From positions 1-60,622 of the forward strand of contig JBCCYM010000004.1 of the NCBI GenBank assembly GCA_039190005.1: 60,622 nt of DNA. Reading direction: 5' to 3'. Every line of letters starts with the position of its first letter. The first letter of the stretch is position 1. Below the pieces are notes generated by a model. It saw only the letters and a program-made list of their open reading frames with translations. It was not told the DNA's origin and made no database searches. The DNA comes from Pseudomonadota bacterium (GTDB lineage: Bacteria > Pseudomonadota > Gammaproteobacteria > UBA12402). Both the position numbers and the translations under genes were made by a program. This document shows, in pieces, positions 13,778-22,641 of this stretch.

Positions 13778-14524
13778 CTACTTTATTGTATCGATCCAGT
13801 CATGCAAACGATCAAAACCATCATAATCGGTCCAATCCATGCGGAAAGGTGTCACCGAAACTCTATTACTGCGCACCGCGAAAAAATCACTGCCCTCATT
13901 GATATCACGGGCATCACCCGGCAAACCGATCCAGTATAGCTCGCCACCTCGAGGATCTTCTACTTTAATAGTAGGTTCAGAAGCATGTCGACGACCAAAA
14001 TAAGTCACTTCAATACCTTCTATTTTACTTAAAGGCAAATCCGGCACATTAATATTAAGAATTGTATCGCTAGGCAGTGGTTTTTCACGCATTAAGGTGA
14101 CCATCTCTTTGACGATGGCCGCCGCCGCCTGATAATGTTCAGCGGGACTGCCTAAAGAAACCGCCAAAGCCGGAAATCCCAAATAACGCCCTTCCATCGC
14201 GCCGGCAACAGTGCCGGAATACATAATATCATCACCTAAATTATAGCCTCGGTTGATCCCTGAAATCACCATATCCGGTTGCACGTCCAAGGCGCCGGTA
14301 AGCGCGAGATGCACGCAATCGGTTGGCGTGCCGTTGACCATATAATGTGAATCCGCCATTTGAGTAATACGCAGCGGTCGATCCAATGTCAATGAGTTGC
14401 TGGCGCCACTGCAGTTACGATCCGGCGCGATCACGGTGATATCGACAATGTCAGCTAATACTTCAGCCAAACATTGAATGCCCGGTGCCGTATAACCATC
14501 ATCATTACTTAGTAATATTTTCAT
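13778..14524 (-). CDS. surE: 5'/3'-nucleotidase SurE
   Basis: [42 protein letters not shown]. Confidence 0.97.
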
Positions 14525-14666: not shown

Positions 14667-15200
14667 TCATTTAAAATCAAACTGTCGAAGTACAATATCA
14701 AACGCCTGTTTAAACCAAGGTGTATAATTATCCGGCATGCGCGCGTAATCAGCGTTAATCTGTTCCGGTCTTAGCCAAGCATAATCGGCAACTTCTTTGT
14801 CGTTAACCACAAATTTTTGTGGTCGCCAAAAACCCAATAAGACATGATCTATCTCATTTTCAGTCAAACCATCATCAAAATGGGCGATATAATGAAAAAC
14901 ACCAATCGCTTGTAAATCAACATCGGCTATGCCCATCTCTTCATACAAACGACGCTGACCAGCCGCAATAATAGTTTCACCCGGTCGCGGATGACTACAA
15001 CAGGTATTGGTCCATAATCCGCCACAATGATATTTATCCCATTGGCGTTGTTGCAATAACAGCCGTAACGATTGCCGCGTATCATCAGCAATAAAAATAG
15101 AAAAAGCGCGATGTCGCAAACCATGCTGATGCGCTTTCAGTTTTTCTTCAGTGCCAATTAGCTGATCCTGATCATCGACTAAAATAACTTGTTCTGTCAT
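14667..15200 (-). CDS. idi: Isopentenyl-diphosphate delta-isomerase type 1
   Basis: LRHRAFSIF, LLQQR, WTNTCCSHP, EEMG, ENEIDHV, YTPWF. Confidence 0.95.
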   Translation of the reverse strand: MTEQVILVDDQDQLIGTEEKLKAHQHGLRHRAFSIFIADDTRQSLRLLLQQRQWDKYHCGGLWTNTCCSHPRPGETIIAAGQRRLYEEMGIADVDLQAIGVFHYIAHFDDGLTENEIDHVLLGFWRPQKFVVNDKEVADYAWLRPEQINADYARMPDNYTPWFKQAFDIVLRQFDFK

Positions 15201-16204
15201 AACAATTGCTCTCGATAAGGTTGTACAATTTCTAAATTTGGAAAATGAGTTTGTACGGCGTGTTTGTCTTCTTCTAAAAATAATAATTTCAGATTAGGGC
15301 CAGCATCTTGAGTAAAAAACAACGACAAGCCTTGATCACGCAACTGCCAGATTTTTTTCATCGCGTTAATTGTTTCAGCACAACTATACATAATCGATGG
15401 CGCTGCCGTCAGCATACACGCGTGCATGGCTAGCGCGTTACGCTCCGCTGTCCGCCCTAATAACTTAAAATCACGCGCGGCAATGGCCTGCCGCGTCAAC
15501 TTGAGATCATTATCTACTCTAGCTGGCCATGCCTGATAGAATTCACTTGCCATCGTTAAGCGCATGGCTTTGCCACTGCTCATTTTTTTCGGCTCGGTTT
15601 TAAATAACAATAAACCGACACATAAATCTGACCATAATGGCGCCACAGGTTGGGCGTAACAATCCATACCATCTTCACGTTCACCACACTGCCATAACAC
15701 AAAACGATGCCAAAATGAACGGCTGGCACTACCACTGCCAAGACGCGCTAAAATAGACAATGCCCTATCCGATAACTGCCAAGCAAAAAATTGATTCAAT
15801 GCCTTTACTAAGGCGGCAAAGCCACAAGCGGACGATGCCAAACCCGCGGCTATCGGCACAGTACTATGACTGTTCACCCGAAAAAAAACGTTTTTATCGC
15901 CACGAAAAAGATCAAGATAAGCACACAAGCGTCGCGCTAAACCGGTATCAGAGGCAATGACTTGGTCATTGATAATGATTTCATCACAGTTACCGGACGC
16001 TAAACTGATCCGCGTTGTCGCTCCGCGCTTGCCTAGCGATACCGATAAGCTCGAGGTGACTGGCAAATGCAAGCCTTCATTACGCTTACCCCAATATTTA
16101 ACCAAAGCGATATTACTTGGCGCGAATGCTGTCGCGCTTTCCATAGCCGGTTGAGTATTTTTATTGGCTAATAGCGTTCGCACAATGCTTTGTTTGTCTG
16201 TCAT
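15197..16204 (-). CDS. mvaD: Diphosphomevalonate decarboxylase
   Basis: APSNIALVKYWGKR, AAGLASSACGFAAL, ARLGSGSASRS, FTQDAGPNLKL. Confidence 0.95.
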   Translation of the reverse strand: MTDKQSIVRTLLANKNTQPAMESATAFAPSNIALVKYWGKRNEGLHLPVTSSLSVSLGKRGATTRISLASGNCDEIIINDQVIASDTGLARRLCAYLDLFRGDKNVFFRVNSHSTVPIAAGLASSACGFAALVKALNQFFAWQLSDRALSILARLGSGSASRSFWHRFVLWQCGEREDGMDCYAQPVAPLWSDLCVGLLLFKTEPKKMSSGKAMRLTMASEFYQAWPARVDNDLKLTRQAIAARDFKLLGRTAERNALAMHACMLTAAPSIMYSCAETINAMKKIWQLRDQGLSLFFTQDAGPNLKLLFLEEDKHAVQTHFPNLEIVQPYREQLL

Positions 16205-17193
16205 AGATAACGCACACCTTGTTTTTCTACACGCACGTCAATTTGCCTCACGCCCGCGTTTTTTTGTGCTGTATTGACGGGAAAATAATTGTCCGGCAAT
16301 TTTCCCAAAGTAATAAAACAATCACCCAAGCCGGCGCCAGAAAGTTTAGCGGCTAGTATACCCGGCATTTGACGCAATTGTAATAACAAACCATCAAGCC
16401 AAGCGTTACTCAGTGCCAGCTTTTCCATTAAAGCTTGTTGCGCGCCCATCTGCTCAGCTAAACTGTGCCAATCTCGCGCTATCATTGCTGACCAGGCTTT
16501 TTCAACCAGCGTCGCAATTTGCGTATACATGGCATCATAGCGTTCAGGATATTTTTTTGCCTCATCCGCCAGTTTTTTTACCACATCCGCTGTCGGCGTT
16601 TTACTACCGGAATACAATAAACTCAGTTCTGGAAAATGTTCCGCTTGTTTAATTGATAATGACCGCGGATGATAATAAATCATACCACCAAACACACTGG
16701 CAGCAACATCCGCGCCCGAACCCATACCCTGCACCCGTCGCACCACTGTTCTCGCTTGTTCTAATAAGGCAATGGGCGTGATTGTTCTAGCCAATAAGCG
16801 ATTGATTGCCGCCATCATCGCGACAGTGACCGCCGCCGATGAACCCAGCCCAAGATTATGGGCAAATTCTGTGCGAATACTTAGATCAAATCCATTACTA
16901 AGCTGCGCTTTAAAAAATTCAATTGACGCTAACACAAAAGAAAATGGCGCGGCAATGCTTATGGTATCGAGATCGGTATGATACTTACCCAGTTGATCTG
17001 AATAAATATTTATTTCTCTGTCTTTACGCGGTGATAATTCAACATTGATCACACAATCAAGCGCGCAGACAATCGCCGGATGGCCATAGACAACCGCGTG
17101 TTCACCCATGAGCATGGCACTACCCGGTGCCGATGTTTTAATGACTGGCTCAGGCAACACGCAACCCTTGATGTTCAGCGATAACCGGCTCAA
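16201..17193 (-). CDS. GHMP kinase, probable phosphomevalonate kinase (true start probably near 17157-17160)
   Basis: SAPGSAMLMGEHAV, GLGSSAA, GSGADVAASVFGG, KLSGAGLGDC; position between mvk and mvaD. Confidence 0.8.
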   Translation of the reverse strand: MSRLSLNIKGCVLPEPVIKTSAPGSAMLMGEHAVVYGHPAIVCALDCVINVELSPRKDREINIYSDQLGKYHTDLDTISIAAPFSFVLASIEFFKAQLSNGFDLSIRTEFAHNLGLGSSAAVTVAMMAAINRLLARTITPIALLEQARTVVRRVQGMGSGADVAASVFGGMIYYHPRSLSIKQAEHFPELSLLYSGSKTPTADVVKKLADEAKKYPERYDAMYTQIATLVEKAWSAMIARDWHSLAEQMGAQQALMEKLALSNAWLDGLLLQLRQMPGILAAKLSGAGLGDCFITLGKLPDNYFPVNTAQKNAGVRQIDVRVEKQGVRYL

Positions 17194-19381
17194 CAGTATA
17201 ATGGTAATGACGACAGACTGGCTTTATGTGATCAAGCTGATCAGTAATCACTAATACCATACCGGCATTATCGCCAACAACACTACCAGCGCCACATATC
17301 TTAGCAGCGGCACCGTGTTGCTCTAAATCCTGAATAAATTGTTGCACTTTTTGTGGCACCACCTCAATACGACAAAGCAGGCGGTGATTATGACGAATGA
17401 TCGATTGAATTTTATCAACATCATCTGAAGCCAAAAGCTGATCCAAGGCGTTGGTTGTCGCGGCAAATTCATTCCAAATAGCATCTTCAGCAAAATACTG
17501 TCTGACATGACTGACACTCTCACCGGTTGATGATCGCGGTTTGCCAGTATTCACCAAAAACATCGGCACTCGCGGTATTGGTCGCTGTTCAATGTCGCCG
17601 CCATTCACATACACACAACCGCCATAAAGTGATACGTTTAAATCAATCCCACTGCTGTTACCATGCTGTAGATTTTCAATTTCATGGCTCATTTTCAAAT
17701 ACATGTCACTATCAACATGATGACCATAATATTCATTGATTGCTTTTAACACACTTAAAGACACGGCCGCCGATGAACCCATGCCACAACCGACAGGAAT
17801 ATTCGATTGTGTCGACACTTTGATACCCTGTGGCGGCTGTTGTAAATGCGCCATTAAATGCGCTGTGGCAAACTGAACTAATTGCACCGGTTGTTTGATC
17901 ACATCTTGAATGGTACATTCCTGATTTAAAAATTTATGGTACTTACGTTTTATACTCGATTTTAAATCTTTTAAAGCTTGTTTGGTTAAAGACTTGTGGT
18001 AGTGTAAATCAAGCAAATCGAAATCAACCTTATCATTCTCACTATCAGCGACAACCGTTGTTTCAGCGTAACGATTCACCGCCAAAGCAATTGCCGGCTT
18101 ACCGTAAACAACCGCGTGCTCACCGGATAAAATGATTTTACCAGGAGAAATCGCCCGACTCAGTGCCGGTGTCGTGATAGGGACAGGACGCGACGCATCT
18201 GCTGCACTGCTGTCATTGCGTTCATAAAGCCGTTTGTGATTTTCAATCCCCGCCAAACGGTAGTTACCGGTATTGTATTGTGGCAACTGAAAAGCACTGC
18301 CATCACGCGGTAATTGACTGGTGAAAAATTTTTCATAGTCTTCAATGCTCAATGCCTGACGCTGCTCAATCAACTGTTGATGATAAGACTTATCCAGATA
18401 TTGCTGATAACCTGCTTGTATCACACCGCTAAAATATTCCGCCACGCAACCGGAACCATAGCTGTATAAGCCGATACGTTGATGACTTAAATCATCCGCA
18501 CTGTTTTCCAATAGTGAAATCAAGCCAATATATAACGACGCGGTATACGTGTTGCCAATCTCCCGACCATAACGCAAACCATCAGCTGTTTGCGCGGCGA
18601 CTTGTTGATCATCCAACGGCAATGATTCATAGCGCGCCAATTCTTTATGCGCTTTCTCAACCAAACGCGGCACCGGCGCGTGATAAAGAAACCCACTAAA
18701 ATCATTAAAACCATGTCCGGAATTTTCCTTATAATGTTGCCATGATTGCTTGAGTGCCTGTAAATACATTTTCGCTGAATATTTTCCTTCCACCAATGCC
18801 TCGCGGCGGTAATTTGGTCGCCAGAAATCCATAATGTCATTGGTATACAACCCATAATGCGGTTCTATCGCCAGTAATCTTGGTTGCGCGCTGATTAACA
18901 TGGCAACCGCGCCACCACCTTGTGACGGTTCACCGGAACTGCATAAGCCGTAACGGGCAATATCCGCGGCAATAATCAAAACATTTTTATCCGGACGACG
19001 CTGCACCATCGCGCAGGCCATCTGCAAAGCTTGTGTGGCGCTATAACAGGCTTGTTTCAGTTCAACAACACGACAGCGTTGCGGCAAATTGAGCAGACCA
19101 TGCACATAAATACCCGCTGATTTTGATTGATCGATACCACTCTCAGTAGCAAATAATAGCGTATCAATACTGTCACAATCGACATCGCGCAATAGTCGTT
19201 CGGCGGCATTCGCCGCCATGGTGACCACATCTTCATCCGGCGCCGGCACCGACATACGATGCTGCCCCAAACCAATAAGAAATTTATCCGGATTAACACC
19301 GCGATGCGCTGCCAGCATTGATAAACTCAAAACATAATGTGGGGTATAAAAACCGATTTTATCAATACCAACTGTCGTCAT
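17150..19381 (-). CDS. Fused HMG-CoA synthase (N-terminal) and mevalonate kinase (C-terminal)
   Basis: HMGS: ATESGIDQSK, ELKQACYSAT (catalytic Cys), DFWRP, GNTYTASLY, SYGSG. Low-complexity linker DSSAADASRPVPITTP. MVK: PGKIILSGEHAVVYG, PVGCGMGSSAA, KICGAG. One uninterrupted ORF. Confidence 0.9.
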   Translation of the reverse strand: MTTVGIDKIGFYTPHYVLSLSMLAAHRGVNPDKFLIGLGQHRMSVPAPDEDVVTMAANAAERLLRDVDCDSIDTLLFATESGIDQSKSAGIYVHGLLNLPQRCRVVELKQACYSATQALQMACAMVQRRPDKNVLIIAADIARYGLCSSGEPSQGGGAVAMLISAQPRLLAIEPHYGLYTNDIMDFWRPNYRREALVEGKYSAKMYLQALKQSWQHYKENSGHGFNDFSGFLYHAPVPRLVEKAHKELARYESLPLDDQQVAAQTADGLRYGREIGNTYTASLYIGLISLLENSADDLSHQRIGLYSYGSGCVAEYFSGVIQAGYQQYLDKSYHQQLIEQRQALSIEDYEKFFTSQLPRDGSAFQLPQYNTGNYRLAGIENHKRLYERNDSSAADASRPVPITTPALSRAISPGKIILSGEHAVVYGKPAIALAVNRYAETTVVADSENDKVDFDLLDLHYHKSLTKQALKDLKSSIKRKYHKFLNQECTIQDVIKQPVQLVQFATAHLMAHLQQPPQGIKVSTQSNIPVGCGMGSSAAVSLSVLKAINEYYGHHVDSDMYLKMSHEIENLQHGNSSGIDLNVSLYGGCVYVNGGDIEQRPIPRVPMFLVNTGKPRSSTGESVSHVRQYFAEDAIWNEFAATTNALDQLLASDDVDKIQSIIRHNHRLLCRIEVVPQKVQQFIQDLEQHGAAAKICGAGSVVGDNAGMVLVITDQLDHIKPVCRHYHYTVEPVIAEHQGLRVA

Positions 19382-19382
19382 A

Positions 19383-20423
19383 TTACCTGTTCCGACGTTC
19401 AAATAACTGATGCGCTCGCATCAACTCATCAGGATTTGTTAAGGCGGCTAATAGAGATAACTCGCCACATAATACCGTGGCCGCAATAATTTCAGCCAAG
19501 CGCCGCGCGTTTAAACCTGGCTCGGTTGATGCTAGACAACCTAACTGTTCAAGATTATCTTTAACAAACCCAATCATTTTACCATGACCGACTGTCCCGA
19601 CAATAAGATTGGGAATTGTGACTGAAAAATAGAGACCTTGATCATCACATTGGGCGTGAGTAATCCCCTGTGAGCCTTCAACAATATTGGCGCCATCCTG
19701 ACCCGTCGCTAAATACATCGCCAACAATATATTAGCAAAATGCGCGTTCGCACTTTGAAGACTACCAGCCGCTATAGAACCAATTAAATTCTTTTTGATG
19801 TGCAAGTCAACCAAGCGCGCCGGCGTTGTATTCAACACTTGCTGACAAATATTCTCGGAGATATTGATTTCAGCAATCATATATTTACCGCGACCGAGTA
19901 TCGCGTTAACCGCGCTCACTTTTTTATCAACACAGTAATTACCACTGATAGAAACATAACGTAAATCAGCAAATACCGACAGCAAATAATTCTGAATGTG
20001 TTCGGCGGCAAATGTCACCATATTGTGACCGGAGGCGTCACCGGTAGTAAATGATAAACGCAGATAAATTGTTTTGCCGATAATGTGATGCTGTATGGCT
20101 TGTAACTTAGCGAATCGACTGCCTTGACTGACAATACCCGCTAACTTATCATAATGATTCACTTCGATGGATCGCGCGATTTCAACCGCTTGCTTAGCCG
20201 ATGGCGCTTCTAAGCTAATTGAACGCGTCATACAGTCACTGACCATGCTGACCGCAATTCCTCCGGCTAAACAAGAAACCTTGGCGCCACGTGCCGTTGA
20301 CGGCCAGAGTGTGGTTTCATAAGTCGCTAAAGGCACGTTAATTTGTTCGTCGTCAATGATCTCGGACCGTACTCTTACCGGGCCGATAAACCGCATCGGA
20401 ATGGCAGCGACTTGATTATTCAT
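19383..20423 (-). CDS. hmgR: HMG-CoA reductase, short class I bacterial type
   Basis: VPLATYE, TGDASGHNM, SGNYCVDKK, ATGQD, GELSLLA and LMRAH motifs. Confidence 0.92.
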   Translation of the reverse strand: MNNQVAAIPMRFIGPVRVRSEIIDDEQINVPLATYETTLWPSTARGAKVSCLAGGIAVSMVSDCMTRSISLEAPSAKQAVEIARSIEVNHYDKLAGIVSQGSRFAKLQAIQHHIIGKTIYLRLSFTTGDASGHNMVTFAAEHIQNYLLSVFADLRYVSISGNYCVDKKVSAVNAILGRGKYMIAEINISENICQQVLNTTPARLVDLHIKKNLIGSIAAGSLQSANAHFANILLAMYLATGQDGANIVEGSQGITHAQCDDQGLYFSVTIPNLIVGTVGHGKMIGFVKDNLEQLGCLASTEPGLNARRLAEIIAATVLCGELSLLAALTNPDELMRAHQLFERRNR

Positions 20424-20482: not shown

Positions 20483-20797
20483 CTAGGTGGCGCTAGTGTC
20501 TGATTTTGCCAATTTACTGGGGGCGACAAACTGATAATAGGTTTCATTATCTTTTATCATGCCCAATTTCTGACGCGCCAAGGATTCCATGGCGGATTTG
20601 TTAGATTTTAATGCATCAATTTCGCGCGCGAGTGTTTGATTACGTTCGCTTAAACGCGCGTTGATTTGTGTCTGCCGGCTAATTTGATGTTTAAGTTGTA
20701 AGGTATGGGTCATGCCATTGGCGGAAAACCAAAGCTTATACTGAAGCAGTCCAAACAGCAGTACAAAAACAAGCAGTAGCGATTTCAACATTGACAT
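20483..20797 (-). CDS. ftsB: Cell division protein FtsB
   Basis: LQYKLWFSANG after a TM helix, coiled coil, ESLARQKLGMIKDNETYYQ. Confidence 0.9.
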   Translation of the reverse strand: MSMLKSLLLVFVLLFGLLQYKLWFSANGMTHTLQLKHQISRQTQINARLSERNQTLAREIDALKSNKSAMESLARQKLGMIKDNETYYQFVAPSKLAKSDTSAT

Positions 20798-20977: not shown

Positions 20978-22426
20978 TTATAGCTGATTTTGGAAATCTT
21001 TAGCTGCAAAAATCCTACTATTTTGTATGATATAATAACGCGTTACAGCAATCTCTTTAAGAAAATCACTGTTATGAGAAATCACAAACATAGCGCCAGG
21101 ATAATGCTTTAACACTTGGACAACATGCGCGTAGGTCTCTAAATCCAAATTATTCGTTACCTCATCCAAAATAAGCAATTTCGGCGTCACTGCCGCGATT
21201 TGCGCCAAGCTCAGTCGCGCTTTTTCACCACCGGATAATGTTGCCACGTTGGCATTAATTTCTTCATTTTTACGAAAAAGAAAATCATTCAAATGTCGGC
21301 GCGCTTCAATGGCTGACCACAGCGGCATGCTTTCAGCAATCGTATCAAAGACAGTCATTTCCTCATCAAGTGTTTTATAGTGCTGGTCAAGATAAGCGAT
21401 ATCATTCAATTTAGGCACTACCCAGTGTCCTGTTTTTTTGACCGCGGCACACGATAAGATTGCTTTAATTAAGGTTGATTTACCACTGCCATTATTGCCA
21501 CAAATCGCGATGCGATCTTGAGCGTTTACTGATAGATTAATATCGCTTAGCACCACATGATTATCATAAGCAACACTGGCATCGCTAATTGCCACAAGCT
21601 GAGCATTGCTTACAGCCCCCTTGATCGAAAATTTAGGCACGATAACTTCCGCTAATTTTAAATCGGCAAGCTGCTGTCGCGCCATGGTTTTCTTATCATC
21701 AATCGCCGCTTTTTTTCGTCCTGATGTCATTTCTGCGCGTGTTGCTTTAGCAAAGCTAGTAACCATTGCCCATTTGCGATTAATAATATTTTTTCTTCCT
21801 TTCTTACGACTATTAGCCGCGCGTTTTTGTTCACGCATCAACATCTCATGCGTTTGTTTTTTTTGTTTATTGAGCTGCGCGATTGTTTTTTCTATCGCCG
21901 CGCGCTGACGTCTTTGCTCGACAACATAGTCATCATAATTTCCTGAGAAAACATGAATCTCACCATCGTCAATATGCCATAAACTGTCAACACAACGACG
22001 CAGCAGTTCCACATCATGAGAGACAACAATTAAACTACCATGATAGGCCTTTAACATCCGCATCAGTGATTGACGATTATGGTAATCAAGATGATTAGTC
22101 GGTTCATCCAGTAATAATAGATTAGGATTGCAACTTAATGCTTCAGTCAATTTTTTATTAAACCGTTCACCGCCACTGGCATTTAACGGTGAATCAATAA
22201 CTTGCGGCACATAAGCGCAAATAACATCATCGGGAATCTGTACAGTGCCACTACTCGGTTCAATTTTGTCTTGCAAAATTTTTAATAATGTCGATTTGCC
22301 ACTGCCATTAGCGCCGATAATGGCGATACGATTACCGTAATGCAAACTGGCAGTGAAATCAGCAAAACAGATTTTATGCGGAAAAAAGAGGCTGACTTGA
22401 TCAATTTTTATAGGTTTATGCGTCAT
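20978..22426 (-). CDS. ABC-F family ribosome-associated ATPase, ARE-like (start taken at MTHKPI)
   Basis: Two NBDs (GANGSGKST/SGGE/LLDEPTN; GNNGSGKST/LSGGE/ILDEVTN), no TM segments, long basic linker. Confidence 0.88.
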   Translation of the reverse strand: MTHKPIKIDQVSLFFPHKICFADFTASLHYGNRIAIIGANGSGKSTLLKILQDKIEPSSGTVQIPDDVICAYVPQVIDSPLNASGGERFNKKLTEALSCNPNLLLLDEPTNHLDYHNRQSLMRMLKAYHGSLIVVSHDVELLRRCVDSLWHIDDGEIHVFSGNYDDYVVEQRRQRAAIEKTIAQLNKQKKQTHEMLMREQKRAANSRKKGRKNIINRKWAMVTSFAKATRAEMTSGRKKAAIDDKKTMARQQLADLKLAEVIVPKFSIKGAVSNAQLVAISDASVAYDNHVVLSDINLSVNAQDRIAICGNNGSGKSTLIKAILSCAAVKKTGHWVVPKLNDIAYLDQHYKTLDEEMTVFDTIAESMPLWSAIEARRHLNDFLFRKNEEINANVATLSGGEKARLSLAQIAAVTPKLLILDEVTNNLDLETYAHVVQVLKHYPGAMFVISHNSDFLKEIAVTRYYIIQNSRIFAAKDFQNQL

Positions 22427-22641
22427 GATAGTTATTAAACAATTAGGGGAAACATTTCCATTAAAACTTGTTAAAGTTCTAATGCCGACCTGCTTCTTCA
22501 CCGGAAGCAATGTTTAATAACAATTGTTCACGACAGCACGTACCTCTATAAAAAATTTGGACTTAACATTCAATTAAAGAATGCTATTAATATGCCATAT
22601 GCTAACAGCATTTTAATTAAAAATCAAATTACCGTCATTTT

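Follow-up and report, generated by a model that had tools for sequence, protein, structure and literature searches.

Fusion of HMG-CoA synthase to a GHMP kinase, assigned as mevalonate kinase, in a gammaproteobacterial mevalonate operon

MvaE of Enterococcus faecalis is a natural bifunctional fusion of the bacterial mevalonate pathway and it combines acetoacetyl-CoA thiolase with a class II 3-hydroxy-3-methylglutaryl-CoA (HMG-CoA) reductase (HMGR). For the methylerythritol phosphate (MEP) pathway, IspDF constitutes a common bacterial fusion of enzymes catalysing non-consecutive steps, with the intervening enzyme produced separately, and its assembly with IspE has been proposed (PMC13001223). 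Here we examine another fusion, of HMG-CoA synthase (HMGS) with a GHMP kinase that is very probably a mevalonate kinase (MVK). It is encoded in a 60,622-nucleotide stretch of DNA, hereafter the window, which extends over positions 1 to 60,622 of contig JBCCYM010000004.1 (assembly GCA_039190005.1) of a Pseudomonadota bacterium assigned to the gammaproteobacterial lineage UBA12402.

We estimate a probability of about 0.85 that the gene represents a genuine, inherited fusion of adjacent and translationally coupled hmgS and mvk genes, yielding an intact MvaS-type synthase and a mevalonate kinase on a flexible tether. Full-text literature searches, including those directed at Legionella, Coxiella and Piscirickettsia, produced no description of an HMGS-MVK fusion, and Hoshino & Gaucher (2018) mention only the trimming of fused partners from the alignments that they used.

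The fusion gene and its domains

The minus strand carries a single open frame over positions 17150 to 19402, which yields 750 amino acids when read from a TTG start codon. Initiation at the ATG located at 19381 produces 743 codons and a stop (17150 to 19381, minus strand), with the N-terminus MTTVGIDKIGFY, and this start agrees both with the N-terminal motif MxKVGID of the homologues and with the database protein for the contig (P0007). The product was examined with NCBIfam and Pfam models, homologues and a structure model, and it divides into an HMG-CoA synthase domain (aa 1–390; 18212 to 19381), an inter-domain linker (aa 391–412; 18146 to 18211) and a GHMP kinase domain assigned as mevalonate kinase (aa 413–743; 17150 to 18145), all on the minus strand. 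The prokaryotic HMG-CoA synthase model TIGR01835 (HMG-CoA-S_prok) scores 495.1 bits against a cut-off of 360.35 and is matched over its entire length (profile positions 1–382 of 382; residues 11–393 in the 750-residue reading), and the mevalonate kinase model TIGR00549 (mevalon_kin) scores 186.5 bits against a cut-off of 163.05 over residues 419–706 of the same reading. Pfam domains HMG_CoA_synt_N, HMG_CoA_synt_C and GHMP_kinases_N are all present. An initial annotation, made from the letters of the DNA, had proposed a 743-codon open reading frame (ORF) with a complete HMGS, a Ser/Ala/Pro linker of about 20 residues and a complete GHMP mevalonate kinase, and it is borne out by the ORF and by the NCBIfam and Pfam matches, the linker being 22 residues long. 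Its proposal that the two enzymes catalyse non-consecutive steps, with HMGR acting between them, is likewise supported, the two domains being assigned to steps 2 and 4 of the pathway.

The linker, SSAADASRPVPITTPALSRAIS, is rich in Ser, Ala, Pro and Thr and lies between the end of the synthase (...NHKRLYERND) and the first GHMP motif, PGKIILSGEHAVVYG. A codon list revealed no in-frame ATG, GTG or TTG within it. An internal start producing a separate MVK was also considered, and rejected, given that codons 379–425 include no canonical start codon.

Alignment of 54 diverse fused proteins demonstrated that E80, C112, H234 and N277 of the synthase half are invariant, as are K415, S536/S537, E569, D580 and the third GHMP motif of the kinase half. 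On the basis of residue offset and motif we take E80, C112 and H234 to be the catalytic E79, C111 and H233 of E. faecalis MvaS. Residues K415, S536/S537, E569 and D580 are the equivalents of Lys13, Ser146, Glu193 and Asp204 of the rat mevalonate kinase. Both domains are complete, and we infer that both enzyme activities are retained.

An AlphaFold2 model based on the 54-sequence alignment yielded a mean predicted local distance difference test (pLDDT) score of 91.2, with values below 50 confined to aa 392–404 in the core of the linker, which is predicted to be disordered. The predicted template modelling (pTM) score of 0.57 is what two well-folded domains commonly give when, as in the model, their mutual orientation is not fixed. 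In Foldseek searches the N-terminal half, which has the thiolase-like fold of MvaS, superimposed on the E. faecalis enzyme (3v4n and 1x9e) with target-normalised template modelling (TM) scores of 0.95–0.96, 43% sequence identity and a root-mean-square deviation of 1.8 Å. The C-terminal half gave target-normalised TM scores of 0.84 with the mevalonate kinases of M. jannaschii and M. mazei, and of up to 0.84–0.86 among archaeal and mammalian mevalonate kinases. The same searches detected no PDB chain covering both halves, the best query-normalised TM score being 0.50.

The window derives from a metagenome with a k-mer depth of about 13, and an indel or a chimeric join during sequencing or assembly could have brought two neighbouring genes into a common frame; in many relatives the two genes do overlap in different frames, where one erroneous base might in principle suffice to join them. 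Split relatives end their HMGS with ...HKRIYEKKD* and start their MVK with MNKQFKARSPAKLILSGEH, with overlapping stop and start codons, and the linker has no equivalent in these genes; its approximately 22 additional residues therefore do not correspond to a simple shift of overlapping genes, and a frameshift within a gene overlap was rejected on these grounds. A Logan contig of 8177 bases, assembled from a marine metagenome run of 2024, agrees with positions 17000–19500 without a mismatch or gap; the window probably derives from this very sample, so that two assemblers agree on the same data rather than on independent data. The stop codon or frameshift that would have undermined the initial annotation was looked for at the linker in this second assembly, at the level of the contig and not of reads, and none was present. 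The organism was absent from the other two runs of the same study. Stronger than the contig agreement is the comparative evidence: the nearest relatives (P0008–P0010 and P0020) and all other members of a 27-sequence clade are fused, and the fusion recurs in complete genomes of cultured species. We therefore consider an artefactual join to be highly improbable.

Fused and split relatives

A homologue search over 5.8 billion proteins yielded 509 relatives, and at least 120 clusters, defined at 90% identity, were examined. Their members are 731–852 aa long and 47–61% identical to the window protein, nearly all of them over 95–100% of the query, and they carry both HMGS domains together with GHMP_kinases_N. 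Among the matches listed, fused proteins occur in Piscirickettsia salmonis, P. litoralis, Aquicella siphonis and many gammaproteobacterial metagenome-assembled genomes (MAGs), and the window protein shows at most 61% identity to any family member. The initial annotation had implied that the pairing was rare and had itself counted an abundance of similarly built annotated homologues as a refutation; such homologues are indeed numerous, and the window protein is, judged from its sequence, a new and fairly divergent member of an existing, uncharacterised family rather than a one-off. Linkers of the homologues range from 11 to 106 aa and are unconserved in sequence. P. salmonis (CP039227.1) and A. 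siphonis (LR699119.1), both represented by complete genomes, share the operon of HMGR, HMGS-MVK, a second GHMP kinase (GHMP2) and diphosphomevalonate decarboxylase (MVD), and a NUDIX-type isopentenyl-diphosphate isomerase (IDI) gene lies downstream of it in the former and divergently upstream in the latter.

The fused proteins are under-annotated, with a single name in each source, hydroxymethylglutaryl-CoA synthase at NCBI and mevalonate kinase in UniRef; one JGI record is titled "HMG-CoA synthase/mevalonate kinase".

Split arrangements were found in a genome scan, which produced 80 loci from Legionella-labelled and Legionellaceae MAGs, a Coxiellaceae MAG, Amphritea, Neptuniibacter, Marinobacterium, Pontibacterium, Pontiella and other Kiritimatiellota/Verrucomicrobiota. 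A script combining ORF calling and BLAST assigned HMGS and the MVK-type kinase to separate ORFs at every one of the 80 loci. Wherever a locus captured both genes, they adjoin one another and their order is unchanged, and about 12 short loci of the Kiritimatiellia type show HMGS alone.

A tree built from 200 HMGS domains places the window within the all-fused clade of 27 sequences, with a support of 95. The fused and split states cluster strongly on this tree: they require six changes, at least three of which are forced by well-supported branches, compared with 63 on average when labels are shuffled, and an approximately unbiased (AU) test on a 70-sequence IQ-TREE subset rejected a single fused clade (p = 0.001). 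The phylogeny thus needs several fusion or fission events within the family.

MAGs of the Kiritimatiellota, Pontiellaceae and Verrucomicrobiota encode HMGS, often together with MVK and GHMP2, with 53–57% identity to the gammaproteobacterial genes (loci L001–L004, L027, L030, L034, L039, L042–L046, L050, L060, L067 and L075). These genes branch beside those of the Oceanospirillaceae, which suggests that the operon may have been transferred between phyla.

The two GHMP kinases and the surrounding operon

Immediately downstream of the fusion gene lies a second GHMP kinase gene (16201 to 17157, minus strand), which has a GTG start and encodes 318 aa. As the decarboxylase of the operon acts on diphosphomevalonate, either the fused or the free kinase must be a phosphomevalonate kinase (PMK). 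The assignment that we favour, with mevalonate kinase in the fusion and an MVK-like PMK downstream, is supported by several criteria. A motif search matched 170 of the 190 fused-type kinases and each of these carries the lysine of the P[GA]K motif, equivalent to rat Lys13, and the 20 unmatched sequences include some of the PAK type which also show this lysine; the fused-type kinases share, in addition, the MVK-style motif HGxxSGxD. In the downstream kinases, which carry the motif QGxGSGxDxAAS, the Lys13 position could be scored for 63 of the 64 orthologues, one being unmatched, and it is occupied by Ser (55), Thr (6), Cys (1) or Asn (1) and never by Lys. Profiles of the downstream kinase also match PMK structures better than those of the fused type, with 56.9 against 21.3 bits for the Streptococcus pneumoniae PMK (1k47) and 120.8 against 81.9 bits for the PMK-family protein Lin0012 (3k17), and the Arch_PMK model scores 62.6 bits over the full length of the downstream kinase compared with 25.6 bits for the fused domain.

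The reverse assignment, in which the fused domain would be the PMK, the downstream kinase the true MVK and the protein an HMGS-PMK fusion, draws on three observations. Both kinases exceed the TIGR00549 cut-off, the downstream enzyme with 168.8 bits. Both match MVK structures best in single-sequence searches, the free kinase scoring slightly higher (99.8 bits with 8teb) than the fused domain (90.4 bits with 1kkh). Moreover, every source labels homologues of the downstream kinase as mevalonate kinase. These similarities are set against the retention of the MVK lysine and HGxxSGxD motif in the fused-type domain, the consistent lack of this lysine in the free kinase, and the far better fit of the free-kinase profile to the PMK structures and to Arch_PMK, and we regard the reverse assignment as quite unlikely. 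Thus, the fused domain is very probably the mevalonate kinase, and the downstream enzyme is probably an MVK-like phosphomevalonate kinase that has so far escaped recognition. The order HMGS-MVK-PMK-MVD that follows from this assignment is also that of the operon of Paracoccus zeaxanthinifaciens.

The first gene of the operon encodes HMGR (19383 to 20423, minus strand), a 346-aa protein with a class I-like catalytic domain (PF00368, 286.6 bits), and its position directly upstream of the fusion is as the initial annotation had stated. On the NADPH class I model TIGR00533 (HMG_CoA_R_NADP) it scores 302.8 bits over profile positions 70–402, below the cut-off of 441.8, because approximately the first 70 profile positions are missing. 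The short HMGR is of equal size in relatives from fused and split lineages alike. Downstream of the second kinase follow genes for diphosphomevalonate decarboxylase (15197 to 16204, minus strand; TIGR01240, 246.3 bits, cut-off 171) and a type 1 isopentenyl-diphosphate isomerase (14667 to 15200, minus strand; NF002995, 149.8 bits, cut-off 127).

All junctions of the operon are translationally coupled. The TAA of the HMGR gene lies one nucleotide before the fusion ATG (TAA-n-ATG), the GTG start of the second kinase overlaps the last eight nucleotides of the fusion gene, and the kinase/MVD and MVD/IDI junctions each consist of an ATGA overlap.

The mevalonate operon is flanked by ftsB (DivIC family; 20483 to 20797) and surE (13778 to 14524), the latter followed by a gene for an RpoS-like sigma factor. 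In the gene order of the E. coli type, ispD-ispF occupies the position between ftsB and surE, and the mevalonate genes may therefore have replaced these MEP genes in place. Directly upstream of ftsB lies a gene (20978 to 22510, minus strand) for an ATPase of the ABC-F type, which carries a linker in addition to two ABC_tran domains.

Possible benefits of the fusion and comparison with known systems

In the pathway envisaged, the fused protein would catalyse step 2, the condensation of acetoacetyl-CoA and acetyl-CoA to HMG-CoA, and step 4, the conversion of mevalonate to mevalonate 5-phosphate, with step 3 performed by the separate HMGR encoded just upstream. The downstream Lys-less GHMP kinase would then act at step 5, as phosphomevalonate kinase, followed by MVD and IDI. 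Loss of the hmgS stop codon, together with the gain of a short linker, could have placed proteins that were already cotranslated under 1:1 synthesis and brought them together in the cell, and no specific catalytic channel would be needed. A fixed 1:1 ratio of HMGS to MVK, following directly from the fusion, is the simplest reading of its effect, and the most economical account of its benefit would be obligatory co-synthesis at this ratio with co-localisation, as the end-point of the tight coupling that extends throughout the operon. Given that sister lineages maintain two genes, the fusion may also be near-neutral.

Several points weigh against an inherited fusion of synthase and mevalonate kinase as we have presented it. 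The assignment of the kinases depends on residue patterns and relative profile scores, and, as described above, both enzymes pass the mevalonate kinase model. The sequence itself is supported by assembled contigs, not raw reads, probably from the source sample. Stand-alone HMGS proteins were excluded by a length filter from the search that produced the fused homologues, and the genome scan yielded split loci only, such that the first sample is biased towards fusions and neither gives the true ratio of the two states. The tree was built from HMGS alone and, because it is unrooted, gains of the fusion are not separable from losses. Finally, no enzymatic or expression data were found for any member of the fusion family.

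A more specific function, put forward in the initial annotation, would be that of a metabolon scaffold, in which the fusion holds HMGR between HMGS and MVK and thereby channels HMG-CoA and mevalonate. Such a scaffold is compatible with the inherited, tethered fusion and would add a specific selected function to it. The HMGR gene directly precedes the fusion and is coupled to it in translation, the fusion partners flank the step that HMGR catalyses, and the fused state, which has been gained or lost repeatedly, is maintained in large clades; moreover, IspDF fusions, which join non-consecutive enzymes of the MEP pathway, are common (PMC13001223). Nevertheless, the linkers of highly variable length and unconserved sequence, together with a viable split state, argue against a precise inter-domain machine, and the structure model provides no defined arrangement of the two domains. 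HMGR is also encoded upstream of HMGS in split lineages, where it is similar in size and 50–61% identical, directly adjoining HMGS in loci of the Legionellales type and lying about 1 kb away in those of the Oceanospirillaceae. We consider the scaffold unlikely. A stricter form of the idea would trace the recurrence and long survival of the fusion to selection for a three-enzyme complex, whose dimeric HMGS and dimeric MVK halves would clamp the short class I-like HMGR, and pass on HMG-CoA and mevalonate without release; this seems to us a distinctly doubtful proposition.

The preferred reading, a tethered synthase and mevalonate kinase with no necessary channel, can be compared with five systems. 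The closest is the unnamed HMGS-MVK family itself, represented by P. salmonis, P. litoralis and A. siphonis and extending over Legionellales-like and Piscirickettsiaceae members of about 730–850 aa. The window protein is colinear with these over 99% of its length and shares their set of Pfam domains, their operon and their catalytic residues, whereas the sequence of its linker is its own.

Next are the separate mvaS and mvk genes of Legionella-labelled MAGs, Amphritea, Neptuniibacter, Marinobacterium and Pontiella/Kiritimatiellota, whose products are 50–60% (HMGS) and 32–48% (MVK) identical to the corresponding domains. Their operons share the gene order HMGR-HMGS-MVK-GHMP2-MVD with the window but carry two ORFs, with overlapping or adjacent stop and start codons, and no linker. 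Because a single family includes both fused and split pairs and has switched between them several times, it offers a natural experiment on the benefit of fusing non-consecutive enzymes, and the natural HMGS-MVK fusions are candidates for use in engineered mevalonate pathways.

An operon with two MVK-like kinases extends over Legionella-labelled MAGs, Coxiellaceae, Piscirickettsia, Oceanospirillaceae and Kiritimatiellota. A KEGG-based review of 2026 reported that all the Legionella analysed lack PmvK, and that most lack HmgS, and they were not scored as users of the mevalonate pathway (PMC13001223). Because the Lys-less downstream kinase is annotated as mevalonate kinase, no phosphomevalonate kinase is ever called, and the presence of two MVK-like kinases, one of them sometimes fused to HMGS, may explain the apparent absence of PmvK and HmgS from Legionella.

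Among characterised enzymes, E. faecalis MvaS (1X9E and 3V4N) shares its fold and the Glu/Cys/His residues with the synthase half but is a stand-alone protein of 383 aa. MvaE of the same organism also joins non-consecutive steps, 1 and 3 in its case, but it comprises other enzymes and is unrelated to the kinase half of the window protein. IspDF belongs to another pathway and has unrelated folds, such that the resemblance is one of analogy only; should an HMGS-MVK-HMGR complex exist, however, it would represent the mevalonate-pathway counterpart of the assembly proposed for IspDF and IspE.

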